In this document: positions 1,476-47,191 of the stretch, piece after piece | Layout: every line of letters starts with the position of its first letter | Numbering within the stretch: the first letter of the stretch is position 1 | NCBI GenBank assembly: GCA_964371935.1 | Contig: CAYJOT010000001.1 | Location: 1 to 48,729, forward strand | Source: an uncultured Candidatus Saccharibacteria bacterium | GTDB taxonomy: Bacteria; Patescibacteriota; Minisyncoccia; Sungbacterales; HO2-52-23 | DNA length: 48,729 bases | Direction of reading: 5' to 3' | Position numbers and translations under genes: made by a program | Notes under the pieces: generated by a model | Database searches by the model: none | Seen by the model: only the letters and a program-made list of their open reading frames with translations | Told to the model about the DNA's origin: nothing

Positions 1476-1504
1476 ATACTAATCCTTTCCCATTTTCTTG
1501 TCAA
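1476..1504 (-). promoter_or_regulatory. Candidate sigma70-type promoter of the rRNA operon
   Basis: The minus strand reads TTGACA (1504-1499), a 17-nt spacer, then TAGTAT (1481-1476). This is ~360 nt upstream of the mature 16S 5' end. Confidence 0.5.
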
Positions 1505-1512
1505 GCGCAATA

Positions 1513-1556
1513 TTTATATCACTATTTTGACCGATCGAACAAGATAGTGATATAAA
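1513..1556. repeat. CGATCG-centred palindrome, copy A (class 1)
   Basis: The sequence is TATATCACTATTTTGACCGATCGAACAAGATAGTGATATA with the symmetry centre at 1534/1535. It matches copy B (18740-18781) at 39/42 positions. It lies 19 nt after the stop of the 615-aa gene and 8 nt upstream of the rRNA -35. Confidence 0.85.
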
Positions 1557-1574: not shown

Positions 1575-3422
1575 TTATCTCTGTGCCTGCAACAGATTTT
1601 TTACCATATCCCAGTACCGGCCATCGCCTTGTTTCTCCCTCACGTAATACCACCACTCCGCGCCCCAGAGATAGTACTCATCAAACCCCGTATCTTGAGC
1701 ATACTGGATTGTCTCGCGGAAATATTCGGGAGGAAAGATGCCGGTCTGTTCCTCGTATGACAGCAGGGGTATTTCAACCGGGCCCCATGGTTCGGCCTGG
1801 AGTTCGATCACGATGAAGCGTTTTGTGTACTCGCCCGTAAGCCAGCGCGCAAATCGCTGTCTGAACTTGAAAAAGGATGGGCTTAAAGGATAATCAATAA
1901 TGCCTGTATAGCGCCCGATCGACGGAGGATAGATGCGACGATACATGGTGGTGCCAAATATGTCTCCGGCGCGAATTGCCCTATTCCATAACCCAAGCTC
2001 TCCACCGTCCGTCACCACGACCGGATGCACCGGATCAAGAGATTTTACGAGTGCGATCTCATCTTGAAGCGCCTGCTGCGGCCGCGTCGCGCACAAACCG
2101 AATTTCAAAAACGGTTCGTTTTCCACTTGCCACATCTGGAGCGCCGGATGATTTTTGTACCGTTGTACAACTTCCGTCAGATATACGCGCAGCCACGCTT
2201 CTAATTCCTCGTTTGGAAATTTGGATTTTGAAATTTGAAATTCCCGCGTCCACGCGGGCATATGACATTCGGGCCAGCGCGGCGTCTTCATGCCAACCAC
2301 GACAACCACGCCAATCCCCCGCTCGGCGGCCCGATTCATCTGCCAGTCAAGATTTGAGAAGTCATACGTTCCGCGCTCGCGTTCAATCTCATCCCAATAC
2401 GCGATCAGCCGCATCTTTTTTGGGTGCAGTTCATCCACAATCGCAGAAAAATTTTTTTGCCAATCAAGCCCGAGCGCGCGGCTGTACTTGTCCGAAAACG
2501 TAACACCCCATGTGATATCGCGGTGCGAATCAACCGGAAGCGCCGCCGCATAGGTAACCAGACCAAGCACAATAAGCCCAACGGCAATGCAGGTTGTAGC
2601 GCTCATTTTGCCGATCAGACGCAAACCCCGGGCCCGCTCTTTGAGCAAAAACCATCCGGCAAGGAAAATAACGGCGTGGCGCATGCTTTGTGTGGCATCC
2701 ACGAGCGCCGGATGCGCCAAAAAGATTGCGCCGCTTACCATAAATGAACCGAGCGATCCATAGACGCGATTGGCAAAATACCAGCCCCGGTTTGCCATGC
2801 TTGCCGTCTCCGAGAGCGCAAACACGCGCTGCCTGATGCGAGAAATCAGCAGCAGCGCAAGAGCAAATATGACTCCGCCCATGCGCGGCCAGAAAAATCC
2901 GGCAAGAAAGTTCGTCTCCTCAAACGTGATCTTGGTAAGTACGTTGGAGATTCCGAAACACAACGCGCTGGCCAACGCAAGGAGAAAAACCGTGACACGT
3001 AATTCTTTTTTCTCGGTGATAAAGAAAAGAAATCCGCCGAAAATCAAGATGGTGAACGCGACCAAATCGCCAAAACCGAGAAGCTGCTGTTTCAAGAGAG
3101 ACCCAATGGTAAGCGTTGCAATGGGAGACATCGCGCCCACGAGTGCCAAAGTTCCGGCAACATCGGCTTTCCGGATCGCAAGAAAAACACAGAGCATCGC
3201 AGCAATGAAAAAAGCTCCCGCAATAAGCGCCACCGGAATTACGGAAAGCGGAATGTTTGTCACGCCAAACGGCAGAAGCAGCAAAGAGAATATGCCGAGC
3301 AGCCCAAACCAAAACGTATACACCCACGGATCAACAAACCCCCGCTTGAGCAGCAGCTTGTCAAACACCACCGAGGTGCCAAGAACTATTTGCGCAGTTA
3401 TTGCGATGAGAAGCCAGGTCAT
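1575..3422 (-). CDS. Membrane protein: N-terminal ~10-TM EamA/DMT-like domain fused to a C-terminal clan GH-A (TIM-barrel) glycoside hydrolase-like domain
   Basis: A 615-aa ORF. The first ~290 aa are hydrophobic helices. The C-terminal half has a WQVENEP acid/base-like motif and a later IELQAEPW nucleophile-like motif. Its ATG overlaps the stop of the upstream GT2 gene. Confidence 0.8.
   Translation of the reverse strand: MTWLLIAITAQIVLGTSVVFDKLLLKRGFVDPWVYTFWFGLLGIFSLLLLPFGVTNIPLSVIPVALIAGAFFIAAMLCVFLAIRKADVAGTLALVGAMSPIATLTIGSLLKQQLLGFGDLVAFTILIFGGFLFFITEKKELRVTVFLLALASALCFGISNVLTKITFEETNFLAGFFWPRMGGVIFALALLLISRIRQRVFALSETASMANRGWYFANRVYGSLGSFMVSGAIFLAHPALVDATQSMRHAVIFLAGWFLLKERARGLRLIGKMSATTCIAVGLIVLGLVTYAAALPVDSHRDITWGVTFSDKYSRALGLDWQKNFSAIVDELHPKKMRLIAYWDEIERERGTYDFSNLDWQMNRAAERGIGVVVVVGMKTPRWPECHMPAWTREFQISKSKFPNEELEAWLRVYLTEVVQRYKNHPALQMWQVENEPFLKFGLCATRPQQALQDEIALVKSLDPVHPVVVTDGGELGLWNRAIRAGDIFGTTMYRRIYPPSIGRYTGIIDYPLSPSFFKFRQRFARWLTGEYTKRFIVIELQAEPWGPVEIPLLSYEEQTGIFPPEYFRETIQYAQDTGFDEYYLWGAEWWYYVREKQGDGRYWDMVKNLLQAQR
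2212..2243. repeat. AT-rich ~7-nt periodic low-complexity tract inside the GH-domain coding sequence
   Basis: TTTGGAAATTTGGATTTTGAAATTTGAAATTC is translated in frame as FQISKSKFPN. The same word family occurs in the intergenic repeats and in trmD. Confidence 0.6.
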
Positions 3423-4213: not shown

Positions 4214-5510
4214 AATTTTTCTCCGCACTCTCTGCTTGCTCAATAATATTCTTATATTCCCAAGCGCTCTTGCGAATTCTCCGCTCCATTGTCTCATAAT
4301 CAATTTCCACCAGTCCAAACCGTGGCCAGAAGCCTCGCAATTCCGGAAATTCAAAATTATCCAAGAGCGACCAGTAAAAATAACCGCGGACATCAGCGCC
4401 TTCTCGTATTGCTTTTTTCATCCACCGAACATGCTCTTGGATAAATTTTTCACGATGCATATCACGGGCATCTGCGATGCCGTTTTCGGTAATCAGAATA
4501 GGTTTTCCATATTTTTGAAATCGCTTTATGGCATGGTAAATACCTTCTGGGTAGATCTGCCATCCCAAATCGCTTTTCCTCGCAATTTCATTTTCTATAG
4601 TGAACAGTCCAAAGTACTTTCCGCCCCAGCGAAAAGCTATTGGCTCGTGTTTGTAATACTGAATACCAAGAAAATCAGTATACGGACTCATACGCTTCAG
4701 AAACCTGTCTTCACTCAAGTAGTTTGTTATTTTCACCGCCAACTGATTCCAGAGATGGTTTTTGTACGGCGCCCGATGAGCTACGGCATGCGAGATGCCG
4801 ATTTGAAAATCTGCAGACAGCACATGCCCGGCTTCATAGACCATTTTGTGCGCGAGAGTAAAATTCTTCGCTGCACGGTAAGCATAAACCACATTCTTTT
4901 CTCCGGGCGGCTGGACTCCGGTTATATACCCAAATGCCGTGTATAAATTTGGCTCGTTGAACGGCTGCCAATACCGCACCACGTCGCGAAACTGATCCAT
5001 CATATGCTTTGCAAATCTCACATAATCCGCAACGGTTTTTTGATTTTTCCATCCCCCCTGATCTCGCACCCATAAAGGATTAGTCCAGTGCCACAACGTC
5101 ACGAACGGCTCCATGCCGCGTTCGCGAAGCGCCGTGATAACTTTGCGGTAATGCTCGATCTCCTGCTCGTCAAACCTCCCTTCTTCTGGTTCAATACGCG
5201 ACCACTCAATCGAAAAACGGTGGGCATTGTGGCCAAGCTGTTTTGCAATATCAAAATCCTCACGAAAGCGATGGTAATGGTCGCACGCAGTACCGGAAAT
5301 ATAATTTTCGGGCCGCGTCGCTTGCTCCCGTATCATCGGCCACGACGCAAGATACCCGAATCTTTTCTCGGCCTCGGCCGCGAGCCGCTCCGCGTTCGCC
5401 AACTCCCACTCGCTCCAGTCATTGTGATTCCCGCCCTCCACCTGATGGCTCGAGGTCGCCGCTCCCCACAAAAAGTTTTTTGGAAATTGAAAGTTATCGG
5501 ACATGAGCAA
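4206..5510 (-). CDS. GH1 beta-glucosidase
   Basis: A 434-aa ORF with FPKNFLWGAATSSHQVEGG, the acid/base motif FNEP and the nucleophile motif ITENG. Confidence 0.93.
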   Translation of the reverse strand: MLMSDNFQFPKNFLWGAATSSHQVEGGNHNDWSEWELANAERLAAEAEKRFGYLASWPMIREQATRPENYISGTACDHYHRFREDFDIAKQLGHNAHRFSIEWSRIEPEEGRFDEQEIEHYRKVITALRERGMEPFVTLWHWTNPLWVRDQGGWKNQKTVADYVRFAKHMMDQFRDVVRYWQPFNEPNLYTAFGYITGVQPPGEKNVVYAYRAAKNFTLAHKMVYEAGHVLSADFQIGISHAVAHRAPYKNHLWNQLAVKITNYLSEDRFLKRMSPYTDFLGIQYYKHEPIAFRWGGKYFGLFTIENEIARKSDLGWQIYPEGIYHAIKRFQKYGKPILITENGIADARDMHREKFIQEHVRWMKKAIREGADVRGYFYWSLLDNFEFPELRGFWPRFGLVEIDYETMERRIRKSAWEYKNIIEQAESAEKNYE

Positions 5511-5573
5511 AGAGTATTATTATGAGCATCTCACTGTTCAAGTATATTTGTAAACTCCATAAATATCAAAGAT

Positions 5574-5607
5574 CAACATATTATGGCCGATCGGTTATGG
5601 ATTGTTG
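5574..5607. repeat. CGATCG-centred palindrome, copy D (class 2, imperfect)
   Basis: The sequence is CAACATATTATGGCCGATCGGTTATGGATTGTTG. It shares CCGATCGGTTATGRRTTGTTGA with copy E in direct orientation. It lies between the PaaX-like gene stop (5650) and the GH1 start (5510). Confidence 0.7.
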
Positions 5608-5649
5608 ACAGTCAAAATTCCATTTCCGTCGAAAAATTCTCGGATGATA

Positions 5650-6198
5650 CTATGTCTTTTGTATCGTCCCCCGATCTCGAATACTAAAAATGTGCACATG
5701 ATTTCTCACCCTCAGCACATCAAGAAAAGTTAAAAAATCTTCCGGCAGGGGAGCATGGCCAATCCATACGCTTTTTTGCAGTTGGGTAAAACCGGCTGCC
5801 AGCAGTTCTACACGAATTGCCCTCCGTTTACTTCGCTCTTTCTCCGGAATATCAAAAATTACCAAGCGCCCTATGCCATCCTTTTTGGGCAATAGTTCTC
5901 GCTTTTTTGTTTCTCCGATCTTCTGTTCTCCTTGTTTCGTCAGCCGCCACCGCGCACCTGAAGCCCTTCCCGATTTTTCGATCAAACCTTCTGTCTTGAG
6001 TCGTGAAAGAAGCACGGTAAAAGTTCTTTGAGTAACACGCCCCCGTGGATAGGTATTGAAAGCGCCCATGACACTCCTAAAACGTCGAAAACCGCCGCGC
6101 AAAGGGAACATAACATCGAGCATCCCTTCGCCTGCCTCGCTTAATTTTTCGAGAATACAGCGCGTAATAGTTTTGCGTACCCTCCTTTTCGTGTACAT
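5650..6198 (-). CDS. Winged-helix plus Cas2-fold (PaaX-like) DNA-binding protein, paralog 1
   Basis: A 182-aa ORF. The N-terminal part looks wHTH-like (TFTVLLSRLKTEGLIEK). The core LVIFDIPEKERSKRRAIRVELLAAGFTQLQKSVWIG resembles the Cas2/PaaX central beta-alpha-beta unit. It is paralogous to 18164-18718. Confidence 0.8.
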   Translation of the reverse strand: MYTKRRVRKTITRCILEKLSEAGEGMLDVMFPLRGGFRRFRSVMGAFNTYPRGRVTQRTFTVLLSRLKTEGLIEKSGRASGARWRLTKQGEQKIGETKKRELLPKKDGIGRLVIFDIPEKERSKRRAIRVELLAAGFTQLQKSVWIGHAPLPEDFLTFLDVLRVRNHVHIFSIRDRGTIQKT

Positions 6199-6204
6199 GC
6201 CGTC

Positions 6205-6234
6205 ATCATATCACGATAGCCGTATAATCAACAA
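6205..6234 (-). promoter_or_regulatory. Candidate extended -10 promoter of paralog 1, giving a leaderless mRNA
   Basis: The minus strand reads TTGTTG (6234-6229), an 18-nt spacer, TGaTATGAT (-10 at 6210-6205), then 6 nt to the ATG at 6198. The -35 lies inside palindrome E. Confidence 0.45.
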
Positions 6235-6265
6235 CTCATGACCGATCGGTTATGAGTTGTTGATT
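6226..6265. repeat. CGATCG-centred palindrome, copy E (class 2)
   Basis: The sequence is AATCAACAACTCATGACCGATCGGTTATGAGTTGTTGATT, with 20 symmetric pairs including one G-T pair. It lies between the trmD stop and the paralog 1 start. Confidence 0.9.
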
Positions 6266-6332
6266 TAGCAATTCGACGTTTTTCATGTGTCCATGTGTCC
6301 ATGTGATCTTGACTAATTTCGGCATATCGTCT

Positions 6333-7028
6333 TTATCGGGTTTTCTTGGGTCGTACATGATTTTTTCGCCATTCTTCTATTTTCTTATGATCGCCGGAGA
6401 GCAGTTCTTTCGGGACGCGGTACTTTTTTTTCTTCCACTGAAAAATTTCCGGGCGCGTGTACACCGGCACGCCAATACCGTAGCGTTTCTCTTCCAGCGA
6501 TTCGCGTTTGCCGAGCACCCCGGGAATATGGCGCGAGACGGCATCAGCTACAATCAGCGCCGGCAATTCGCCGCCGGTTAGCACATACGGCCCTACGGAT
6601 AAATTTTGAATTTTGAATTTTGAATTTTGAATGATTCTTTTGATGCGCTCATCCACTCCTTCATAGCGCCCGGCGATCATGACTATGCGATTGTACTTTT
6701 TTGCCCAGTCAGCGGCCATTTTTTGAGTAAATTGTTTTCCTGCCACAGAAAATAAAATGATTTTAATGCTCTTTCGTTTGGAAATTGGAAATTGGAAATT
6801 GGAAATTATCGAACCGAGCGCCCGGGCGATTGGCTCGATTTGCAGCACCATACCGGGTCCGCCACCAAAAGGGCGGCCATCAACTTTGCGATGCGGCCCG
6901 CGAGCATAGTCGCGCAGGTCATGTACGCAAAATTCAACGAGCTTTTTTTCTTGCGCTCGCTTGAGAATCGACTCGCCCCTATAGGCATTGATGATTCCCG
7001 GGAAAATGGTGATAACGTCAAAATGCAT
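6333..7028 (-). CDS. trmD: tRNA (guanine37-N1)-methyltransferase
   Basis: The protein begins MHFDVITIFPG and carries RPFGGGPGMV, AGRYEGVDERI and YVLTGGELPA motifs. The start was set at the ATG at 7028; the ORF-track start is a TTG. Confidence 0.93.
   Translation of the reverse strand: MHFDVITIFPGIINAYRGESILKRAQEKKLVEFCVHDLRDYARGPHRKVDGRPFGGGPGMVLQIEPIARALGSIISNFQFPISKRKSIKIILFSVAGKQFTQKMAADWAKKYNRIVMIAGRYEGVDERIKRIIQNSKFKIQNLSVGPYVLTGGELPALIVADAVSRHIPGVLGKRESLEEKRYGIGVPVYTRPEIFQWKKKKYRVPKELLSGDHKKIEEWRKNHVRPKKTR
6602..6632. repeat. (AATTTTG)x4 tandem heptamer inside the trmD coding sequence
   Basis: Four perfect 7-nt units plus AAT, translated on the minus strand as IQNSKFKIQN in a loop that is variable relative to E. 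coli TrmD. Confidence 0.9.
6780..6807. repeat. (GGAAATT)x4 tandem heptamer inside the trmD coding sequence
   Basis: Four perfect 7-nt units, translated on the minus strand as ISNFQFPIS in a second variable loop. Confidence 0.9.
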
Positions 7029-14215: not shown

Positions 14216-14770
14216 TCAACCACACCGAAATGATTTCCGATGCACCTCACACCTTCCAAATTTCCTAATCATCTCGCGATGCAGCTCGGTGCTATATCCT
14301 TTGTGCAAATCGAAACGGTACGCGGGATATTTTTTGTGGGTGCGCAGCATAATGCGGTCGCGGGTGACTTTGGCGATTATGGATGCGGCGGAAATAATGG
14401 GGATAAGTTCGTCGCCCCTGATGATAGTTTCGTGCGAAATGGGCCACGGCAGATGCAAGCTGCCGTCAAGTAAGGCATAGATATGCTTCGATTCCAGACT
14501 TAGTCTGGAAAATACCCTCCGTGCGCCTATCTGTGCGGCCTGGTAAATATTGATGCGATCGATCACTCCGGGCGATATGCGCGAGACAGTCCATTGGATA
14601 CGCGGATGGCCGGTCAGAAAATCAAACCATTCTTCGCGTTGCTTGACCGACAGCTGTTTGGAGTCCCTAATGCCTGCGAGCGCCCGCGCCGCAAGCCGCG
14701 GGGTCATGAGTACTCCGGCAACCACCACCGGCCCAGCAAGCGGCCCCCGTCCGGCTTCGTCTATACCCAT
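14216..14770 (-). CDS. rnhB: Ribonuclease HII
   Basis: The N-terminus is MGIDEAGRGPLAGPVVVAGV. The start is uncertain, with alternative ATGs at 14806 and 14809. The ORF-track start at 14848 would overlap the divergent dnaE start. Confidence 0.88.
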   Translation of the reverse strand: MGIDEAGRGPLAGPVVVAGVLMTPRLAARALAGIRDSKQLSVKQREEWFDFLTGHPRIQWTVSRISPGVIDRINIYQAAQIGARRVFSRLSLESKHIYALLDGSLHLPWPISHETIIRGDELIPIISAASIIAKVTRDRIMLRTHKKYPAYRFDLHKGYSTELHREMIRKFGRCEVHRKSFRCG

Positions 14771-18071: not shown

Positions 18072-18107
18072 CTTCACGGAAACCTATTTGCCATGCTCAA
18101 TATATTT

Positions 18108-18147
18108 TATTATACTATGTTTGCCGATCGGTCAACATAGTGATATA
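18108..18147. repeat. CGATCG-centred palindrome, copy C (diverged class 1)
   Basis: The core is ACTATGTTTGCCGATCGGTCAACATAGT, with arms extending to ...TATTATACT and GTGATATAA. It lies 37 nt after the dnaE stop and covers the paralog 2 promoter. Confidence 0.8.
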
Positions 18148-18149
18148 AA
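18121..18149 (+). promoter_or_regulatory. Candidate extended -10 promoter of paralog 2, embedded in palindrome C
   Basis: TTGCCG (18121-18126), a 17-nt spacer, then TGaTATAAA (-10 at 18144-18149), with the ATG at 18164. An alternative is TTGCCA (18088-18093), 17 nt, TATACT (18111-18116). Confidence 0.4.
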
Positions 18150-18163
18150 ATAATTTTAAATTT

Positions 18164-18718
18164 ATGAAATATGGTGCCCTAACAAAAGCCATTCTTGAGC
18201 GCCTTGCTGAATCAGGCAAGGGCATGATTGAGACGCTCCTGTCCCCGCAGCACCCGAAGGCAAAATTTACTCGGACCGTATTGAGTGCTTATGATACACG
18301 TTACTCTTCTCATCCTGCGGCAAAACATGCCCTCTCCGCCACGCTGTGCCGCCTGAAAAAACAAGGACTGGTTGCAAGCACCGGACCGAAAAAGAAGACG
18401 GAATGGACAATTACCAAAGAGGGTAGAAAATTCTTAAAACACCCCCCACTCCATACAACGAGTAGCGCATATGAACTTCCTCCCGAAGACAATATCATTC
18501 GCCTCGTTACTTTCGATATTCCGGAAAAAGAGAAAAGGAAGCGCCGATGGCTTCGGGCCGAACTACTCTCATGTGGTTTTAGTCCTCTTCACAAAAGCGT
18601 GTTTACCGGAAAGCGGCCTCTGCCGGACGGCTTTATAAAAAATATTGACCGGCTCGGTTTGAACAAGTACACCCATATCATCGGCATTGAAAAATCAGGC
18701 ACTCTTGGCCAAAGATAG
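18164..18718 (+). CDS. Winged-helix plus Cas2-fold (PaaX-like) DNA-binding protein, paralog 2
   Basis: A 184-aa ORF with ALSATLCRLKKQGLV (wHTH-like) and LVTFDIPEKEKRKRRWLRAELLSCGFSPLHKSVFTG. It aligns with 5650-6198. Confidence 0.8.
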   Translation: MKYGALTKAILERLAESGKGMIETLLSPQHPKAKFTRTVLSAYDTRYSSHPAAKHALSATLCRLKKQGLVASTGPKKKTEWTITKEGRKFLKHPPLHTTSSAYELPPEDNIIRLVTFDIPEKEKRKRRWLRAELLSCGFSPLHKSVFTGKRPLPDGFIKNIDRLGLNKYTHIIGIEKSGTLGQR

Positions 18719-18739
18719 CCGGTACAATCGGGTATATTT

Positions 18740-18781
18740 TATATCACTGTTCTGACCGATCGAACAAGATAGTGATAGAAA
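18740..18781. repeat. CGATCG-centred palindrome, copy B (class 1)
   Basis: The sequence is TATATCACTGTTCTGACCGATCGAACAAGATAGTGATAGAAA. It matches copy A at 39/42 positions and starts 22 nt after the paralog 2 stop. Confidence 0.85.
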
Positions 18782-27023: not shown

Positions 27024-29654
27024 TTACTTTTTCCCGCGCGTTTTCGAAGCAGGCACGGGTGAAGATTCCTGACCCTCGGCAACGGGCGGCTGACTGCGGG
27101 CTTCCGGCGGCGTTGCTGGCGGGACAATGCTGTCGAGCGCCGGTTTGCCCACGCGCAAATTTTCAAGAATCTGCTTTACTTCCTGATTATCCGGATTGTA
27201 CTTCGTAATCTCTTCAAACTGCGCGATGGCCTTATCCGGGCTGCCTTGCCGCGAATAAATCAGGCCGAGAAAGTACCGCGCGTTTGAGTACTGCTGGTTG
27301 AGCGACACCGCGCGTTCGAATTCGCCGGCCGCCAAGTTAAGATTATTGTTCTGGTAATACAGGAGACCGAGTTGAAACGCCACGCCAGCGTCAAATGGAG
27401 CCGCAAGTTTTGTGTTCTCGGTGCTCTGGATCGCTTTTTGCAAGTTTCCGCTGCGAAGCGCCGCCTGTGCCAGCAGAAAATGGGCGGCTGCGAAATCGGC
27501 CTTAATGCCAATCGCTTCCTGCAGCACTTTTTCGATCTGTTCAAGTATTTCACTGCGCGACTTGGTAAGCTGTGCGATATCAACTCCCTGCTGTGGATTT
27601 TGCTGCTGTTGGTTTAGGGTTAGCTGGATACTGTCCGCAGCTGCAAGCCCGGCGCGCGCAAGATCAACACGGCCTGCGGGATTTCGTGGATCGAGCTCGC
27701 TTTGTTTCTGATAACTGGCAAATGCAAGACGATCCGCACCAGGAATGTACGGAATGATCGTCTCATACAAAGCGCCTTGCGTTTGCCACAGCGCCGGATC
27801 CTCGGGCGAGAGCGCCAATGCCACCTGACTGTTCTGGATTGCCGTCTGCAGCGTTTGCTGGAAATCGTTTTGTACGTTTTTTCCCTGCGATGCCGCCGCA
27901 ACTAAAGTGCGGATTTTTTCCATGCGCAACTGTACCAGCGCCTGATGCACGCGCGCATTCTTGCTCTCATACCCGGCGGCGCGCTCAAACGAGGCGATCG
28001 CAGCGTCAAGATCTCCCTTTGCAACCGCAGCAAGGCCGGATGCCTGGGCAAATGCGCTCCGGATACGCGTGATCTCGTAGTAAAACATGCCAATACTCAA
28101 GGAAAGCATGAGCACGATTGCGAGTGAGAAGGCGAATACCGCCCATGGCTGCTGAAATGCGACCCAGCGTTCCGAGATACCCCAGAGCCGCGAATCTTTT
28201 TTTTCGTGTTGCTCTTTCCAGACTAAGTCTGGAACGCTTTCCAGACTTAGTCTGGAAACGTCAGCCATTGGCATGCTTAAGCCAGTCATTAAAAGCCCAG
28301 CAAAGAAAAAGAGAAGCAAGACAAAGGCGATGTTTGCCGGATACAGCGCCGCAATGCATACCATGCCCACCAATCCGAGAAAAACGCTGGCGAGAAACCC
28401 GGCATCATCCCGGCGCACGGCCTGCCTGCCCGTAGGCACGGCAAGCAGCGAGCGCAATGCTACGATTAAAAATCCCAGGACAAAAAGGAGGAATAATACC
28501 ACCCCGACAATACCGGTCGTACCCGCAAGCGTAGTGATCAACGAATAACCCTGATTGAATTGCGTTCCCCAAAACGGAGTCGCATTGATTGCCGCATCCT
28601 TATAACGCATCCAGTCCCGATCAAAGGTTGCCGGACCCGAACCAAAGAGCGTACGCACCACGCCTTCGCGATACACGGATCGCGCAATGCGCAAGGTAGT
28701 CATGGCCGAGGGCGACACTTCGGCCGGAAGAGATATGTTCCCCACTATGGGCCCGGGCACCATAAGCATAACTAAGGAGAAAGCAAGCACAACCAGCGAG
28801 AGCGCGTACTTCCCACCCTTTGCCAAGGCTATGGGTGGCAAGCTTTCCCTCGCTTTCTTATCCTCGAATTCAGGCGTGTCCCCCATAGCTTTAGCGGAGG
28901 AGGACACCCAAAACATAAATCCTGAAAGGAATAAACTCCCTACAAACAAGATGATCCACGCAGTTCGGAAATGCACCATGAGCAGGTTTGCGCTAAAAAA
29001 GAAAATCGCCGCATACAGCACCCACCGAATCCATGTGCGCAACTGGTGGAATGCCGGAGTCAATATAAAACCCAGAGCCATGATAATGCCAGTCGCATAC
29101 AGGAGTACCGCGCCATTGATCGTGCCAATCACGTTGAAATCATCACCCTGCACAAAAGGCGCTATTGCCCGGAATGCCGAGACACGGAACGCGAGCGAGA
29201 AGAACGTCATGGCCGCCTGCGCCCCCGCAGCCAAAAGAAAAATAATCACCGCGCGCGTCACGTCCTTGCGCGAAACAAACACGCTGGCTGTCACGATCAT
29301 TACCAAAAATCCAGCGAGCAAAGTTGACCATTTTTCAGCCGAGGGATCGTTCAAAAAAGCCGACGCAAACGGCCTTTTTGAAAGTAATGTACTGACCGAT
29401 GCCGCAAGCAGGAAAAGCGCGCCGGCATAGAGTCCGATTGAGCGGACAAACCGGAACCTTCCGGTCAAGAGGCCGGACAAAAGCCACGCGACAAACGCGC
29501 CCAGAATCAGCAGCAGAAACGTCATTTCCCTGCCGAAATCCACATTGATCCGCCACGGCACAAACCACAGCGGCACGGCCCCCGCAAAGATAAACAGAAG
29601 CGTCCGCCCCACACTCGCAAACCTCAAAGGAACCTTTTGGTCTTGTTCGTTCAT
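27024..29654 (-). CDS. Large polytopic membrane protein (O-antigen ligase/Wzy-like) with C-terminal TPR repeats
   Basis: An 876-aa ORF. Roughly the first 530 aa are TM-rich. TPR-like repeats follow (AIASFERAAGYESKNARVH..., AIAQFEEITKYNPDN). It is first in an operon with murJ and lepA. Confidence 0.8.
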   Translation of the reverse strand: MNEQDQKVPLRFASVGRTLLFIFAGAVPLWFVPWRINVDFGREMTFLLLILGAFVAWLLSGLLTGRFRFVRSIGLYAGALFLLAASVSTLLSKRPFASAFLNDPSAEKWSTLLAGFLVMIVTASVFVSRKDVTRAVIIFLLAAGAQAAMTFFSLAFRVSAFRAIAPFVQGDDFNVIGTINGAVLLYATGIIMALGFILTPAFHQLRTWIRWVLYAAIFFFSANLLMVHFRTAWIILFVGSLFLSGFMFWVSSSAKAMGDTPEFEDKKARESLPPIALAKGGKYALSLVVLAFSLVMLMVPGPIVGNISLPAEVSPSAMTTLRIARSVYREGVVRTLFGSGPATFDRDWMRYKDAAINATPFWGTQFNQGYSLITTLAGTTGIVGVVLFLLFVLGFLIVALRSLLAVPTGRQAVRRDDAGFLASVFLGLVGMVCIAALYPANIAFVLLLFFFAGLLMTGLSMPMADVSRLSLESVPDLVWKEQHEKKDSRLWGISERWVAFQQPWAVFAFSLAIVLMLSLSIGMFYYEITRIRSAFAQASGLAAVAKGDLDAAIASFERAAGYESKNARVHQALVQLRMEKIRTLVAAASQGKNVQNDFQQTLQTAIQNSQVALALSPEDPALWQTQGALYETIIPYIPGADRLAFASYQKQSELDPRNPAGRVDLARAGLAAADSIQLTLNQQQQNPQQGVDIAQLTKSRSEILEQIEKVLQEAIGIKADFAAAHFLLAQAALRSGNLQKAIQSTENTKLAAPFDAGVAFQLGLLYYQNNNLNLAAGEFERAVSLNQQYSNARYFLGLIYSRQGSPDKAIAQFEEITKYNPDNQEVKQILENLRVGKPALDSIVPPATPPEARSQPPVAEGQESSPVPASKTRGKK
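28215..28258. repeat. 44-nt double-hairpin element, copy 1, in frame inside the Wzy-TPR gene
   Basis: The sequence is TTTCCAGACTAAGTCTGGAACGCTTTCCAGACTTAGTCTGGAAA. It matches 46193-46236 at 43/44 positions and is translated as VSRLSLESVPDLVWK in an inter-TM loop. Confidence 0.9.
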
Positions 29655-31932: not shown

Positions 31933-31983
31933 AACGATACCATCGTTTTCTTCTTTTATCTGTGGGATACAAACGATACCATA

Positions 31984-32023
31984 ACAATAATAAAATCCGG
32001 CCTGCGCCGGATTTTATTATTGT
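31984..32023. terminator. Bidirectional intrinsic terminator shared by the HTH gene (+) and rnpB (-)
   Basis: The palindrome is ACAATAATAAAATCCGGC-CTGC-GCCGGATTTTATTATTGT, with a GC core stem, A/T extensions and U-tracts on both strands. Confidence 0.85.
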
Positions 32024-32423
32024 TCCCCTTATCGATAAGCCGAGTTCTGTCTCCGACTAAAATCGGAGGGTGATCATCTCTCTGTACCGCTGATTGCTCA
32101 AGCGGCTCAAGCGGTATCCCCGACAATGCGTTGGGGTCCCTTGCACCGGATAGGTGTTTTTCGTAATACGTTGTTACCAGCGCATCATGTGGGCTCTTAC
32201 CCCATCTCTTTTCACCCTTACTCCGACTTGAGCCGGAGCGGTATGGTCTCTGTGACACTTTCCCGTTCATCCCGACAAAGTCGGGACTATGGCGGCCGTT
32301 AGCCGCTATCGCTTATCTGGTCTCCGGTTTCTAGAATCCAGATTCCGATTTTCCAGATTGGTGCTCGGACTTTCCTCTCCAATCCGCCACGGCGAATCGG
32401 AGCGATCACCTGATAAAGAGAAC
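32022..32423 (-). ncRNA. rnpB: RNase P RNA (bacterial type A-like)
   Basis: The minus strand carries GGAGAGGAAAGTCCGAGCACC (32381-32361), GTAAGGGTGAAAAGAGATGGGGTAAGAGCCCAC and ACAGAACTCGGCTTATCGATAAGG. A 12-bp P1 forms between GUUCUCUUUAUC (5' end) and GAUAAGGGGAAC (3' end). Confidence 0.9.
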
Positions 32424-32459: not shown

Positions 32460-32464
32460 AAACT

Positions 32465-32510
32465 CATTCTTAACAATTTCCTGACGATCGTCAGAAGTTT
32501 GTTAAGAATG
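32465..32510. repeat. CGATCG-centred palindrome, copy F (class 3)
   Basis: The sequence is CATTCTTAACAATTTCCTGACGATCGTCAGAAGTTTGTTAAGAATG. It lies 22 nt after the rnhA stop and 5 nt upstream of the rnpB -35. Confidence 0.85.
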
Positions 32511-32531
32511 AAAAAACTACTTTTCATGGAG

Positions 32532-33011
32532 CTAATTGCGGAACAATGCATGTTGTTCGCTGTCGAGCGCTTGATTTACTAATCGATCAGCTTCTTTGTT
32601 TTGTTCGCGTGGCACGTGGACAAATACGAGCGTTCCGAAATCAATTCGCAGATTCCAGATTTTGATGAAAAGCGGAAAGAGGCGCTCCTGCTCGATTTTG
32701 TATTCGCCATTGAGCTGGCGGCAGACCAGCTCGCTGTCCATCCGCGCCTCGCACTGCATTGCTTTGATCTTCTCTTTGCCGAACAATGCCCTGACTTTTT
32801 CAAGCGCAAAAATAACCGCGCCATACTCCGCCTCGTTGTTGGTGGCGATCCCGATGACTTTTCCATAACTCTTAAGCATCTGTCCCGTTCCATCATAGAT
32901 CACCACGCCAATCGCGGCCGGCCCCGGGTTGCCGCGGGACCCGCCGTCAGTATAGACAATAATTTTTTCTTTTTTGACTTTGGATTTTGTCATTGATTTG
33001 AAATTTGACAT
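32532..33011 (-). CDS. rnhA: Ribonuclease HI
   Basis: It carries IIVYTDGGSRGNPGPAAIG, NNEAEYGAVIFALEK and MDSELVCRQLNGEYK. The N-terminus MSNFKSMTKSKVKK is encoded by an AT-rich repeat. An alternative ATG lies at 32993. Confidence 0.9.
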   Translation of the reverse strand: MSNFKSMTKSKVKKEKIIVYTDGGSRGNPGPAAIGVVIYDGTGQMLKSYGKVIGIATNNEAEYGAVIFALEKVRALFGKEKIKAMQCEARMDSELVCRQLNGEYKIEQERLFPLFIKIWNLRIDFGTLVFVHVPREQNKEADRLVNQALDSEQHALFRN

Positions 33012-33020
33012 TTGAGCTTT
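32976..33020. repeat. AT-rich repeat unit (TTTGGATTTTGTCATTGATTTGAAATTTGACATTTGAGCTTT family), copy a
   Basis: About 40/45 identical to 33901-33946. It covers the RBS, the start codon and the first codons of rnhA. Confidence 0.8.
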
Positions 33021-33833
33021 CTATTTAAGGTATCCGATCTTTTTCAACCAATAATCATTCTCCCACTCCCAAAGAATTTTTGCCGCAACAAATGCTTTCA
33101 TGTCTTGATGCACGAATGGAAATGCCTTCAACTCCACGTCCCCTTCCCGCTCTCCCCATTCATGCTGTTCATCAGCACACACCGTTTTTTTTGCCGCGCC
33201 CACGCGGTAGTATGGAGTGCGAATTTTCGACCGGCCGCCCTTTTCCCTAAGAGTGGCACTACATTTTTTGCAGATCCGATGCTGGTCGATACGGAGAATC
33301 CAGCGGGTCTCAATATCGCACGGCAAAGACAGCGCGCGCTTTATGTCAAACTCCTGCAGGGCCGTGACGTATGCCGCGGTCTGCAGATTGTATTCGGGAT
33401 AAAATCCGGTTGAGGTCTTGATGTCCAAAACGCCAAACTTGCCGTCCACCCATGCAAGCGCATCAAGCGTGCCCGCATACCGATGGCGCAGAGACCAAAG
33501 GCGCCGCTCAACAAACTCGGGGTGAAACTTAATCTTTCGTTGTTCGTTGAACTTCTGGAACGCGGCTACGCCCGGCTCCACCTCTGCGGGAATCCGCCGC
33601 GGCGGATGCGTACCCGTAAGCAGATTCTGGATGGCCTCGTGCATGAGCGTCCCCTCCGCTGCCGACTTGTTCTTCACCTCGTCGGCGGCTTCATAGCTTC
33701 CCATTTCTTTAAAAAAGTTTTCAAGCGCGGGCTTGGATTTAATCTCCAGGATTTTGGTCACGCGGGGATACCATGTCTCACCAACTGTATATCCGTTCGC
33801 AGTTTTAAAATCTTCACTGTCTTGATATCGCAT
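33021..33833 (-). CDS. PD-(D/E)XK-superfamily nuclease (RecB/Cas4-like fold) with an inserted Cys-rich segment
   Basis: It carries GTLMHEAIQ, YAGTLDALAWVDGKFGVLDIKTS and LQTAAYVTAL. The Cys-rich segment is CKKCSATL...CADEQHEW. Confidence 0.65.
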   Translation of the reverse strand: MRYQDSEDFKTANGYTVGETWYPRVTKILEIKSKPALENFFKEMGSYEAADEVKNKSAAEGTLMHEAIQNLLTGTHPPRRIPAEVEPGVAAFQKFNEQRKIKFHPEFVERRLWSLRHRYAGTLDALAWVDGKFGVLDIKTSTGFYPEYNLQTAAYVTALQEFDIKRALSLPCDIETRWILRIDQHRICKKCSATLREKGGRSKIRTPYYRVGAAKKTVCADEQHEWGEREGDVELKAFPFVHQDMKAFVAAKILWEWENDYWLKKIGYLK

Positions 33834-33853: not shown

Positions 33854-33953
33854 AAATATCAAATTCGAAATGTCAAATTAAGCTTAAAACCTCTTCTTTT
33901 GAACTTTGGATTTTGTCATTCATTTGGACTTTGACATTTTGATTTTAGATTTT
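33854..33953. repeat. Inverted pair of AT-rich repeat units (cores AAATGTCAAA and TTTGACATTT) at the pgk / nuclease-gene junction
   Basis: AAATATCAAATTCGAAATGTCAAATT (33854-33879) faces GAACTTTGGATTTTGTCATTCATTTGGACTTTGACATTTTGATTTTAGATTTT (33901-33953). The right unit encodes the Pgk tail KSKIKMSKSK and its stop codon. Confidence 0.8.
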
Positions 33954-36789: not shown

Positions 36790-37965
36790 ATGACAGAAAC
36801 ACCAAAAACAATCTTGATTGCGGGCGCAGGTTTCGGGGGTATGACTGCAGCACTCAAGCTTGAGCGACAGCTCCGCAATCGTCCGGACTGGAATATTGTT
36901 TTGATCGATAAAAACACCTATCAGCTTTATACCCCGGCCCTTTATGAAATCGCGGCAATACCCAAAGAGGAGGTTGATCCGACCAGCATTACATCCATCA
37001 TCGCAATCCCGATCGCGGATATTATTGCCGGGAAAAAGATCACTTTTGTGCAGGGAGCGTTGACCGGCTTTGACTGCGAGAAGCGATCCGTACGCCTACA
37101 GGGAGGCCGGCAATTCAGTTATGCGTATCTCGTCCTTGCGCTCGGGTCTAAAACAAACTACTTTGATATACATGGACTGCGCGAACACGCCCTGCCGCTC
37201 AAGCGTTTCGAGGATACCGTGGCTATACGAAATAAAATCGAACGCATGCTCACCGAACGGCGCGAGTTAACACTTATCGTCGGAGGCGCCGGCGCCACGG
37301 GCGTTGAGCTCATAGCCGAGCTTTCCAACTTCATACGACACAACCCCGTGTGTCCCGTACGACTTGTCCTGATTGAAGCATCGAGTACTGTTTTGCCGGG
37401 CTTTGACCGGCACATCATACAACGCGCGAACAAGCGCCTTATAAACCTTGGCATCGAAATCTATACGAGTACCCGCATTACCTCGGTGGGTTCAAAAGAA
37501 ATTATACTCGATGATGCAAAAGCAATCCCCTATGATATCATGGTCTGGACCGGAGGTGTGATGGGCAATCCTTTCTCCTGCGCCGTCAACAAGTTCCTGC
37601 AGATCGATGATTATGCGTTTGCCATCGGAGACGCCGCCGAATTCACTGACGCGCAAACCGGCAAAACGCTTCCCCGGAACGTGCCTGTTGCCCAAGCCCA
37701 AGCTCGCGCGGTTGCCCGAAATATCCTCCGCGAAATCGAAGGAAAACCAAAGCTCCCTTTTCGTCCGTCCAAAAGATACCCCTATGTCCTTGCCGTCGGC
37801 AGAAAGTACGCCATCGCCGATCTTATCTTCATCCGCTTCCGGGGCTTTGCGGGCTGGTGCGTCAAACTACTCGTTGAACTGCGCTACCTTCTCTTTATCC
37901 TGCCCCTTCCAAAAGCCATCTCTGTATGGCTCCGCAGCATCCGAGTATACGCCTCGAATGATTAA
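36790..37965 (+). CDS. Type II NADH dehydrogenase-like FAD/NAD(P)-binding oxidoreductase
   Basis: It has two Rossmann motifs (ILIAGAGFGGMTAALKL; LIVGGAGATGVELIAEL) and a hydrophobic C-terminal tail. Confidence 0.85.
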   Translation: MTETPKTILIAGAGFGGMTAALKLERQLRNRPDWNIVLIDKNTYQLYTPALYEIAAIPKEEVDPTSITSIIAIPIADIIAGKKITFVQGALTGFDCEKRSVRLQGGRQFSYAYLVLALGSKTNYFDIHGLREHALPLKRFEDTVAIRNKIERMLTERRELTLIVGGAGATGVELIAELSNFIRHNPVCPVRLVLIEASSTVLPGFDRHIIQRANKRLINLGIEIYTSTRITSVGSKEIILDDAKAIPYDIMVWTGGVMGNPFSCAVNKFLQIDDYAFAIGDAAEFTDAQTGKTLPRNVPVAQAQARAVARNILREIEGKPKLPFRPSKRYPYVLAVGRKYAIADLIFIRFRGFAGWCVKLLVELRYLLFILPLPKAISVWLRSIRVYASND

Positions 37966-38007
37966 CAACATTTTATTCACGATCGTGAGAAGTTTGTTGT
38001 TAATCAT
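37958..38007. repeat. CGATCG-centred palindrome, copy G (class 3)
   Basis: The sequence is AATGATTAACAACATTTTATTCACGATCGTGAGAAGTTTGTTGTTAATCAT. It contains the TAA stop of the NDH-2-like gene and lies between convergent gene ends. It shares ACGATCGTSAGAAGTTTGTT with copy F. Confidence 0.85.
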
Positions 38008-45662: not shown

Positions 45663-45767
45663 AATGTCAAATTCCAAATGACAAATCAACGACTAAAGCC
45701 CAAAATCCAAAACAATTTTTTGATATTTAGATTTTGGATTTGATTTGATATTTGAGCTTTGATATTT
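45663..45767. repeat. Inverted pair of AT-rich repeat units filling the L15-secY spacer
   Basis: AATGTCAAATTCCAAATGACAAATCAA...CAAAATCCAAAAC faces TAGATTTTGGATTTGATTTGATATTTGAGCTTTGATATTT. It belongs to the same word family as 32976-33020. Confidence 0.75.
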
Positions 45768-46179
45768 ATGCGTTCAGTTTCGCCGATACTTTTTTAGAAA
45801 ACAGCACATTTTTAAACGTGAACTTGCGAGTAATCTCCCCTCTGCCTAAAATTTTTACTTTTGGCATTCTGCCTTTTTTCTTATGAATCATGCCTGCCTT
45901 GAGCAGCGTTTCCGGAGAAATCAAGTCGCCCGGCTTCATTTTTTGTTCAAGCATATCAAAATTGATCACGACTGGCCGCTCCTGGAATGATCTAAAGCGA
46001 TAGCCGCGCAGTTTCGGGATGCGCTTAAGCGTATCGCGCTCTTCGGGCCGCCGCTTTCCCCCGGCGCGGGCCAGCAGACCTTTGGTACCGCGCCCGGAAA
46101 ACGTCCCGCGCTTTCCGCCGCGGCCGACGCGCTTTTTCCGGTGCAATTTTGTTTTGGGTTGAAGAGTGTTGATTTGCAT
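45766..46179 (-). CDS. rplO: 50S ribosomal protein L15
   Basis: It carries KKRVGRGGKRGTFSGRGTKG. Confidence 0.92.
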   Translation of the reverse strand: MQINTLQPKTKLHRKKRVGRGGKRGTFSGRGTKGLLARAGGKRRPEERDTLKRIPKLRGYRFRSFQERPVVINFDMLEQKMKPGDLISPETLLKAGMIHKKKGRMPKVKILGRGEITRKFTFKNVLFSKKVSAKLNA

Positions 46180-46192
46180 AGTATGGATTAAT

Positions 46193-46236
46193 TTTCCAGA
46201 CTAAGTCTGGAATGCTTTCCAGACTTAGTCTGGAAA
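46193..46236. repeat. 44-nt double-hairpin element, copy 2, in the S5-L15 spacer
   Basis: The sequence is TTTCCAGACTAAGTCTGGAATGCTTTCCAGACTTAGTCTGGAAA. Its right end encodes the last residues (NFPD) and the stop of S5. Confidence 0.9.
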
Positions 46237-46725
46237 ATTACCCTTCTGTCTCAGTTTCTTCAACGCCTCCATGGTTGCACGGGCGTTATTGAGCTTATTT
46301 GGAGTGCGGCTCAAGATTTTTGCCGTAATGTGCCTGATGCCGGCCAAGTCCGCTACAATGCGGATCGGCCCTCCGGCCACAAGTCCTCGTCCCCCCCGGC
46401 CGGGCTTGAGCAGCACCCGGGCCGCGGATGACTTGCCGTCAACCTCATAGGGAATCGTCCGGGTCTTGGTACCCGGAATGACCAGCATGTCTTTCTTCGC
46501 TTTTGCCACTGCTTTTTCCACGGCGCTTGACACGTCAGCGCCCTTGCCCATGCCAAGCCCGACTTTCCCGTTGCGGTTGCCGATGACTACGGATGCGCGA
46601 AAGCTAAACCGCCGTCCGCCAGCCACCACGCGCGCGGTTCTGCGGATATCCAAAACCTTCTGATCATATTCAGGTTTTTCCCTCCGGGGTCCTCCTCCTT
46701 GTCTTCGCTCGTTTGGTTGACGCAT
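46225..46725 (-). CDS. rpsE: 30S ribosomal protein S5
   Basis: It carries RTARVVAGGRRFSFRASVVIGN and GLGMGKGADV. Confidence 0.93.
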   Translation of the reverse strand: MRQPNERRQGGGPRREKPEYDQKVLDIRRTARVVAGGRRFSFRASVVIGNRNGKVGLGMGKGADVSSAVEKAVAKAKKDMLVIPGTKTRTIPYEVDGKSSAARVLLKPGRGGRGLVAGGPIRIVADLAGIRHITAKILSRTPNKLNNARATMEALKKLRQKGNFPD

Positions 46726-46734
46726 AGTAACGTA

Positions 46735-46824
46735 ATATCAAATGATAAATTTCAAATTACAAATAAATGGTGATCTTGACGTTTTAATCTGTTTTGTCAT
46801 TTAAAATTTGACATTTGTAATTTT
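46735..46824. repeat. Inverted pair of AT-rich repeat units filling the L18-S5 spacer
   Basis: ATATCAAATGATAAATTTCAAATTACAAAT faces TTTTGTCATTTAAAATTTGACATTTGTAATTTT, with AAATTACAAAT pairing ATTTGTAATTT. Confidence 0.75.
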
Positions 46825-47191
46825 ATAATTTCAGTCCTCCTTTGCGCGCTCCTTCCGCAATTGCCCTAACCAGGCCGTGATACCGGTATCCGCCGCGGTC
46901 GAACACGACTGTACTGATTTTTTTCTCCACGGCCATGCCGGCAAGTTTCTCGCCAGCGGCAGCGGCCGCCATGGTTCTTTGCATTGGTTTGCTTTTTGAT
47001 TTTGCGCCGTTCAGATCACGCGTACCCACCGCAACAAGCGTATGCCCGGTTTCATCGTCAATCAACTGCGTCCATACATAGCGGTTTGACCGGAATACAG
47101 AAAGTCGCGGGCGGATGCCTGTTCCTTTGACCCGGCTTCGAATGCGCCCATGCCGACGCGCTCGTTTTTCTTTGTTGGAAGTTGTCTTCAT
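46823..47191 (-). CDS. rplR: 50S ribosomal protein L18
   Basis: It carries RPRLSVFRSNRYVWTQLIDD and YHGLVRAIAEGARKGGLKL. Confidence 0.93.
   Translation of the reverse strand: MKTTSNKEKRARRHGRIRSRVKGTGIRPRLSVFRSNRYVWTQLIDDETGHTLVAVGTRDLNGAKSKSKPMQRTMAAAAAGEKLAGMAVEKKISTVVFDRGGYRYHGLVRAIAEGARKGGLKL

Follow-up and report, generated by a model that had tools for sequence, protein, structure and literature searches.

The 48,729-nt stretch of DNA analyzed in this study (contig CAYJOT010000001.1, positions 1 to 48,729; GC content 50%; further called the window) carries two paralogous genes, P1 and P2, which encode small PaaX-like proteins and are both flanked by palindromes with arms specific to the paralog. 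Related genes with flanking palindromes of this kind were found in Patescibacteria (candidate phyla radiation, CPR). We named these proteins mini-PaaX. They probably form a family of autoregulated proteins, each with a cognate class of 44-bp palindromic operators located at its own promoter, after its own stop codon and at a few remote positions. The window belongs to a genome of Patescibacteria close to Candidatus Sungbacteria, and the closest relatives of several proteins encoded in it are found in metagenome-assembled genomes (MAGs) of Sungbacteria. Patescibacteria account for a large share of bacterial diversity and, to our knowledge, almost nothing is known about their gene regulation.

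P1 and P2 share 38% amino acid identity (E 3e-40), and both match the PaaX_M domain (PF20803) with 42.1 and 61.1 bits, respectively, against a cutoff of 24. The AlphaFold2 (AF2) model of P1 (predicted local distance difference test, pLDDT, of 75) consists of an N-terminal winged helix (H-H-H-beta-beta, residues 4-92) followed by a beta-alpha-beta-beta-alpha-beta domain. The best full-length PDB match of this model in Foldseek is PaaX of E. coli W (8a39, E 5e-4, probability 1.0), followed by the PaaX-like protein of Jannaschia (3l09). At the domain level, the two parts separately match MarR/PadR winged helices and Cas2 proteins. The match above the PF20803 cutoff and the top position of 8a39 agree with the fold given in the initial annotation, which had described the proteins from the DNA sequence alone as PaaX-like with a winged helix-turn-helix and a Cas2 fold. 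None of the Pfam winged-helix models scores over threshold for P1 or P2, and a PDB sequence search with the family profile gave no significant match (best E 0.021); PaaX was found by the fold search only. Both proteins end after PaaX_M, without a match to PaaX_C, and remain far under the cutoff of the PaaX equivalog TIGR02277 (19.9 and 31.2 bits versus 264.55), hence the name mini-PaaX for proteins that are PaaX-like but not PaaX. No paa genes are present among the scanned neighbors in the window or in the related loci, the neighbors being dnaE, thrS, trmD and the GH1 glycosidase gene.

The Cas2 family models score below threshold for both proteins (PF09827, 20.7 and 19.9 bits versus 23.8; TIGR01573, 20.5 and 22 bits versus 24.5). 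The window contains no direct repeats resembling those of CRISPR loci and no CRISPR array, and PADLOC returned weak Cas2 matches only and no defence system. One homolog (P0016) is publicly annotated as ‘CRISPR-associated endonuclease Cas2’, which is most likely a misnomer; such mislabeling appears to be common in the family. The mini-PaaX family comprises 4,820 clusters (50% identity) at E up to 1e-3 and 1,820 clusters at E up to 1e-10, and the best 150 clusters all have a length of 112-219 aa.

The palindromes of the window were scored by the number of complementary arm positions out of 20, outside the CGATCG core. Seven of the 17 CGATCG sites are the centers of palindromes of 40-50 bp (Table 1). 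All seven are intergenic and four of them bracket P1 and P2, while the remaining ten sites score 1-7/20 and are apparently coding, judging by the flanking sequence. A score of at least 14/20 is reached by only 12 among the ~48,700 possible centers of the window. The initial annotation had placed P1 between the palindromes C and B and had described orphan A as a near-identical copy of B; the coordinates confirm this, and A and B differ at 3/44 positions (93% identity). The string CGATCG..CAA.ATAGTGATA is common to A, B and C. Exact ATAGTGATA occurs five times in the window, every time inside one of these three palindromes, and with at most one mismatch it gives 17 matches versus 4.9 expected, a number reached by none of 100 shuffles. 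P2 had likewise been described as bracketed, with other arms. This is clear for E and weaker for D, which has a low score but retains the outer TCAACA/TGTTGA motifs and the center.

Table 1. Features of the window. Palindrome scores are complementary arm positions out of 20; promoters are predicted.
Feature	Position	Strand	Characteristics
P1, mini-PaaX gene	18164-18718	+	184 aa; winged helix and Cas2-like PaaX_M; PF20803 E 9.8e-11
P2, mini-PaaX gene	5650-6198	minus	182 aa; PF20803 E 1.1e-16
Palindrome C, class 1	18103-18152		15/20; dyad 36 nt before P1 start codon; overlaps core promoter
Palindrome B, class 1	18738-18781		13/20; starts ~20-22 nt after P1 stop, dyad 41 nt after it
Orphan palindrome A, class 1	1513-1556		16/20
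Palindrome E, class 2	6226-6265		16/20; arm ATCAACAACTCAT; dyad 47 nt before P2 start codon
Palindrome D, class 2	5572-5608		10/20; degenerate inner arms; dyad ~60 nt after P2 stop
Orphan palindrome F	32464-32511		arm TTCTTAACAA; between RNase H-like gene and RNase P RNA
Orphan palindrome G	37958-38007		arm ATTAACAAC; between convergent pyridine-nucleotide oxidoreductase and tpiA genes
Candidate P1 promoter	18088-18116	+	TTGCCA-17-TATACT; 10/12 match; -10 in left outer arm of C
rrn promoter	1504..1476	minus	TTGACA-17-TAGTAT; sigma70-like; reads toward 16S rRNA
GH1 promoter	5541-5569	minus	TTGATA-17-TATACT; sigma70-like; GH1 glycosidase ATG at 5502
P2 cassette	5503-6355	minus	~850 bp; leader, E, P2, D, GH1 promoter
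16S rRNA gene	1-1113	minus	mature 5' end near 1113
RNase P RNA	32020-32421	minus	

Three palindromes of the window are orphans. Orphan A is located ~18 nt after the stop codon of a GH42-like/EamA gene (1575-3422, minus strand), and the dyad of F lies 45 nt after the stop codon of the RNase H-like gene and ~66 nt upstream of the 5' end of RNase P RNA. F and G may not form a class of their own (‘class 3’), as the F/G arms (TTAACAA, TTAACAAC) are one base off the class 2 motif TCAACAAC. A scan of metagenome DNA with the arm common to F and G (CGATCGTSAGAAGTTTGTT) gave 17 matches, 16 of which are chance matches in non-palindromic contexts; the sole true palindrome (L099; related loci are cited with L numbers) is located between convergent genes on a short contig without a family gene. 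Rfam gave no match at the palindromes.

A sample of relatives was collected by a scan with one genome per species, resulting in 80 loci with one paralog per locus, several genomes giving more than one locus. Their record titles are mostly those of Patescibacteria lineages and the remainder are ‘uncultured bacterium’ or binchicken MAGs, several of the latter bearing the titles Saccharibacteria, Gammaproteobacteria or Bdellovibrionales, labels that we consider doubtful. A blind palindrome scan of these loci (18-nt arms, 806 kb) revealed 90 palindromes, 36 of which are centered on CGATCG, with CGGCCG, CGACCG, CGGTCG, TGATCA and TGGCCG as other centers. Most of them are pairs flanking the family gene. 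There are 1.8 palindromes per kb in the 300 nt around a family gene compared with 0.11 per kb elsewhere, and 66 palindromes centered on CGRYCG are found within 300 nt of the gene versus 13 in the 714 kb elsewhere. Among the family genes, 42/79 have a site defined by its architecture (GRYC center and at least 8/10 complementary outer positions) upstream of the start codon and 42/77 have one downstream of the stop codon (53-55%), with both sites present in 30 cases. The control genes of the same loci have such a site in 7/359 and 9/357 cases, respectively (~2%), so that the family genes are enriched ~25-fold over their neighbors. The upstream dyad precedes the start codon by 48.5 nt (median; interquartile range 40-75), and the downstream dyad follows the stop codon at a median distance of 36 nt (interquartile range 21-52). 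Equal frequency of the palindromes beside unrelated genes, which the initial annotation had named as the outcome that would speak against its claim, is thus not what we found.

It is highly improbable that the palindromes are protein-independent signals, such as terminators, CGATCG methylation or restriction sites or HIP1-like elements, which lie near these genes by chance. All seven palindromes of the window are indeed located 17-90 nt downstream of some stop codon, and CGATCG, a known methyltransferase or restriction site, is contained in HIP1 (GCGATCGC) (PMC4390886). Such signals are difficult to reconcile with the enrichment over neighboring genes and with class-specific arms that co-vary with the adjacent protein (see below). 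In addition, CGATCG is observed 17 times in the window versus 23.6 expected, and the center varies among paralogs (GGCC, GACC, TGATCA). We therefore rejected the explanation by HIP1 or methylation sites. An integron attC-like reading was dropped as well, since the arms are unlike the RYYYAAC/GTTRRRY cores, and nothing similar exists in most classes.

The flanking palindromes follow their protein in sequence. P1 orthologs with 94-64% identity keep the gene order dnaE - P1 - thrS - miaA and all of them have both palindromes. The arms ATCACTAT/ATAGTGAT are present in the window and in the orthologs with 94% and 80% identity, and arms of the TTACAATAT/ATGTTGTAA type occur at both sites in four of the five orthologs with 64-71% identity. 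The upstream arms of L085 are intermediate, and GATC is invariant around all P1 orthologs. At the sequence level, all four arms shift together from ATCACTAT to TTACAATAT as the P1 protein diverges. The strongest support for a cognate set of sites comes, again by sequence comparison, from the position orthologous to orphan A, which was examined in relatives carrying the GH42-like/EamA gene. L106 has a palindrome there with its dyad 24 nt after the stop codon and with the arms TTATTATAAT/ATTGTAATAA, which is the class of the P1 orthologs of this lineage. A remote copy beside the rrn promoter has thus switched its arms and appears to track the specificity of the protein. At this position, two CGATCG palindromes belonging to other classes are present in L104 and none in L107. 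Other orphans match the class of a paralog from the same genome on another contig (L012:6560 with L022, L017:12190 with L029). Across loci, similar recognition helices go together with similar outer motifs (RTFSxxLSRL with (T/C)AACAA, RLNSxxxKLxxKGW with GTGTCCA), a comparison that is confounded by shared descent. The co-variation of repeat and protein proposed in the initial annotation is therefore recovered in the joint switch of the four ortholog arms and of the L106 orphan. Arm co-variation, the L106 orphan and the class matches within genomes also support the first of its two readings, a cognate operator set with autoregulation and remote targets.

Another element, AAAAGCCGAGGAGGGTTACTCGCTCGG, is found upstream of thrS and ~100-150 nt downstream of the P1 ortholog in L082, L083, L085 and L086. 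It is absent from the window (no matches with up to three mismatches), and Rfam gave no match at this place in L085 and L086. The element may represent the leader of thrS or a small RNA.

The anatomy of the site was derived from 94 sites. The center is nearly invariant and symmetric (consensus aCGATCGt, with the dyad between A and T). The positions 12-19 from the dyad are 80-97% symmetric with a paralog-specific sequence, examples of this outer motif being TTAACAA, TCAACAA, TATCAC, GTGACAG, GGGACAA and GTGTCCA. The positions 5-11 are 61-74% symmetric and their sequence is not conserved. Beyond position 22, symmetry is at background level. The outer motifs consequently form a pair at ~30 bp from each other, center to center. 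The operator of E. coli PaaX is TGATTC(N27)GAATCA, and PaaX autorepresses its promoter Px by blocking RNA polymerase (PMC9493321). The similar spacing in both systems suggests that widely spaced inverted half-sites are a trait of the family. We propose that P1 and P2 each bind, as a dimer, their own class of ~44-bp palindromic operator. The Cas2-like domains would dimerize over the conserved GRYC/CGATCG center, and the two winged helices would read the paralog-specific outer motifs, each ~15 bp away from the dyad. For a two-domain protein of 184 aa, it is geometrically plausible that a Cas2-like dimer sits on the dyad and places a winged helix ~50 Å out on each side.

Occupation of the upstream palindrome would block RNA polymerase and would result in negative autoregulation, as for PaaX at Px. 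The -10 element of the candidate P1 promoter lies within palindrome C (Table 1), which predicts a transcription start site (TSS) near the dyad, and the arrangement TTGnnn-17-TAYAMT is conserved in 7/8 P1 orthologs (by eye). The promoter originally proposed for P1, consisting of TTGCCG and TGATATAAA, is possible, but TTGCCA-17-TATACT is the better match, as the former lacks the conserved final T and is less conserved. In general, promoter-like hexamers cluster within or beside the palindromes. Orphan A ends 8 nt upstream of the -35 element of the rrn promoter, which is conserved in L106, L107 and L104, and it is in this sense that the previously noted location of A at the rRNA promoter holds. 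Palindrome D abuts the -35 element of the GH1 promoter. Between palindrome F and the 5' end of RNase P RNA lies a TTGTTT / TGgTATGCT pair; F ends ~5 nt upstream of the pair, and the pair ends ~10 nt before the RNA (both by eye). The few orphan copies may mark remote targets, with the 16S rRNA promoter region, the gene for RNase P RNA and the operon of the GH1 glycosidase as candidates in the window.

Elsewhere, the genes directly downstream of the 3' site include ileS (twice), a class II aminoacyl-tRNA synthetase gene, tpiA and a parA-like gene. Orphans in the related loci showed no convincing association with genes for tRNAs or other RNAs. A gene cluster beside the mini-PaaX gene in L039 (L039:5492-10008), also present in L035 and L041, encodes a cyclodipeptide synthase, an Asp/Glu racemase and a major facilitator superfamily (MFS) transporter, the cyclodipeptide synthase in L039 being fused to a solute-binding domain. 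A palindrome of the form GTGTGACAG...CGRYCG precedes each gene of the cluster in these three loci and fills every intergenic gap. Three palindromes of the local class, 127-183 bp apart, are located in L032 (4688, 4871 and 4998) in a gap of 600 bp, ~1 kb upstream of the mini-PaaX gene, between the genes for a peptidoglycan-binding protein of 1,152 aa and a tetratricopeptide repeat (TPR) protein.

The second reading of the initial annotation was a REPtron-like arrangement, in which a Cas2-fold protein is tied to the flanking palindromes. The protein would mobilize or maintain these palindromes as a selfish cassette, and the paralog modules would disperse within genomes. This would fit a gene lying between repeats of its own class, with orphans elsewhere and several paralogs per genome, and also the asymmetric inner sequence common to A and B. 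The same holds for the P2 module, an 850-bp presence/absence polymorphism at a variable junction. The cassette is absent from L107, where trmD and GH1 overlap (L107:2340-2355), and the trmD-GH1 junction carries other cargo in L104 (L104:3872-4338, a 118-aa gene without Pfam matches) and L106 (L106:1674-2493, a 230-aa gene on the opposite strand). However, the junctions of this indel, with CATG at both, are located outside the palindromes at a distance of ~70-90 nt, and a promoter is part of the cassette. The P2 module therefore looks like the gain of a regulatory cassette and not like transposition through the palindromes. In addition, no HUH, transposase or recombinase domain was found with Pfam and NCBIfam, and the copy number is low in the DNA covered, where class 1 occurs three times in the 48.7 kb of the window and orphans number ~13 in 714 kb of related loci (~1 per 55 kb). 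Finally, dnaE-P1-thrS is syntenic from 94% to 64% identity and the palindromes evolve in place. The layout of the indel, the low copy number and the lack of a transposase fold disfavor mobilization, to which we assign a very small probability.

Several observations weigh against cognate operators as the full explanation. No site was found with our criteria in 26/80 loci. The distance from palindrome to TSS at the rrn promoter differs among relatives (roughly -65, -87 and -95), for which reason a fixed phasing of palindrome and promoter was dropped. Of the sites after the stop codon, 15/36 face a convergent gene, in nine cases a long open reading frame (ORF), and 19/21 co-directional downstream sites are nearer to the stop codon of the family gene than to the next start codon (medians 37 versus 111 nt). 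The 3' site is thus not a conventional operator of the downstream gene. The orphans G, L099, L012:6560 and L017:12190 are also located between convergent genes, where no promoter is expected. Furthermore, the inner arms vary within a class, yet they are often fully self-complementary (22/22 at both sides in L068 and L080). Pairs of the same class have 167 single changes, and their double changes are compensated in 46 cases and uncompensated in 27, a pattern that a plain B-DNA operator model does not predict. The behavior of the inner arms suggests that an extruded or hairpin form is used to some extent, or else that quasi-palindromes are symmetrized by templated correction, which would be a mutational process and not a function.

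Inner arms and gene-end positions of this kind would be explained by palindromes that function in the form of extruded cruciforms or of single-strand hairpins, an alternative that we consider unlikely. The winged helix would then read the paralog-specific stem motif and the Cas2-like domain the GRYC loop, and palindromes at gene ends, including those of the own gene, would be protein-dependent bidirectional terminators or insulators. The excess of compensated changes, the occurrence of 22/22 palindromes with differing inner arms in one locus, inner arms that are symmetric without being conserved, the proximity of dyads to stop codons and the sites between convergent genes all point in this direction. 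Moreover, 0/~16 orphans are found in divergent intergenic regions, against a background of 17%, and 6/7 palindromes of the window fold far better than shuffles as single-stranded DNA. Palindrome D folds no better than shuffles (z -0.29), and both D and the palindromes of the P1 orthologs combine poorly complementary inner arms with conserved outer motifs and center, which speaks against a structural signal. Nine upstream sites are found in divergent regions, away from any gene end, and templated correction could yield symmetry without selection. An RNA hairpin is not favored, as sense-strand G.T and A.C occur without bias (16 versus 22 upstream, 31 versus 25 downstream). The palindromes also differ from intrinsic terminators, with AT-rich stems, no consistent T-run and no U-tract, whereas the genome has canonical terminators (31983-32024).

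The hairpin at 31983-32024 has a CCGGC...GCCGG stem, a T-rich tail and extended AT-rich palindromic flanks. It includes the final bases of RNase P RNA at the 3' end and continues past them, which indicates that this genome uses ordinary intrinsic terminators.

In the reading with cognate operators, which we prefer, the 3' copy would belong to the module. It may close a loop with the 5' site, act as a roadblock or insulator against read-through, or control a downstream promoter where one exists. A conserved second site past the stop codon, even before a convergent gene, is unusual for a transcription factor and may point to looping or insulation. As a more far-reaching and improbable variant, mini-PaaX proteins may be Patescibacteria-specific ‘gene-end clamps’ that insulate or terminate transcription at the ends of their own gene and of selected other genes. 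Each paralog may then recognize its own palindrome class in a structure-sensitive manner, the winged helix contacting the arm motif and the Cas2-fold dimer the GRYC center or loop. Targets may include regions leading to core translation genes, such as the 16S rRNA promoter and RNase P RNA and, in relatives, ileS, thrS and another class II aminoacyl-tRNA synthetase gene. If so, the family would form a main layer of transcriptional organization in genomes that encode very few regulators.

We found no description of the mini-PaaX family or of this arrangement in the published literature on PaaX, Cas2-fold relatives, PF20803 and CPR. What is gained is a sizeable protein family with a predicted binding-site architecture and, for each paralog, a recognition motif that is legible from the flanks of its own gene, so that regulons become predictable from sequence alone.

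The window has some further features. The match to the 16S rRNA model covers the model positions 1-561 only, spread over 1,113 nt, which indicates that the gene has an insertion of ~550 nt within its 5' half. Insertions are often reported in CPR 16S genes. Low-complexity short repeats (GGAAATT, TTTGAAATT and TTTGACATTTGA types) occur at 2209-2242, 6601-6634, 6774-6807, 32971-33026, 33897-33952, 45718-45773 and 46767-46830; the copies at 32971-33026 and 33897-33952 span gene boundaries. A second, unrelated palindrome family of 19-20 bp, TTCCAGACT(A/T)AGTCTGGAA, has an operator-like layout, with a single copy directly upstream of dnaE (14492-14513) and tandem pairs with 4 nt spacing within an ORF for a TPR protein of 876 aa and between rpsE and rplO (28215-28258 and 46189-46240, respectively).

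Among known systems, PaaX (8a39, 3l09), a GntR-type repressor of phenylacetate catabolism, is the closest. Both have an N-terminal winged helix followed by a Cas2-like PaaX_M domain, the inverted motifs of the predicted mini-PaaX operator have a spacing similar to those of the PaaX operator (~27-30 bp), and repression of the own promoter by occlusion, known for PaaX, is proposed for mini-PaaX. In contrast to PaaX, mini-PaaX proteins are ~130 residues shorter and lack the PaaX_C effector (phenylacetyl-CoA) domain, and their genes are not located near paa genes. Their site is a full 44-bp palindrome with a GRYC center conserved family-wide, a second copy of which directly follows the stop codon. 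Genomes encode several mini-PaaX paralogs, each with its own arm sequence, and in the sample examined the family is restricted to Patescibacteria. The likeness to Cas2, a CRISPR adaptation protein, consists of the ferredoxin-like fold and the beta1 ‘FDIPE ... KSVF’ motifs (weak matches, E ~1e-4), but mini-PaaX proteins stay under the Cas2 family thresholds, are fused to a winged helix and have no CRISPR array in the window.

The organization of the locus is reminiscent of two other systems. As in REPtrons, composed of repetitive extragenic palindromes (REPs) and a REP-associated tyrosine transposase (RAYT), palindromes of one class lie on both sides of the mini-PaaX gene, and the repeat class changes from paralog to paralog. 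Mini-PaaX differs from them by the lack of an HUH Y1 (IS200/IS605-like) transposase, a copy number that is low in the DNA covered, a stable synteny and palindromes that overlap promoters. The palindromes of REPtrons belong to families of tens to hundreds of copies per genome. Phage lambda CI (OR/OL) and the looping repressors LacI, GalR and DeoR share with mini-PaaX a repressor gene or regulated unit that is bracketed by two operators of its own product, the mini-PaaX ones being putative, an arrangement that would allow cooperative looping. Unlike in these systems, the mini-PaaX sites hug a single gene of 0.55 kb, and no oligomerization domain is evident beyond the Cas2-like dimer.

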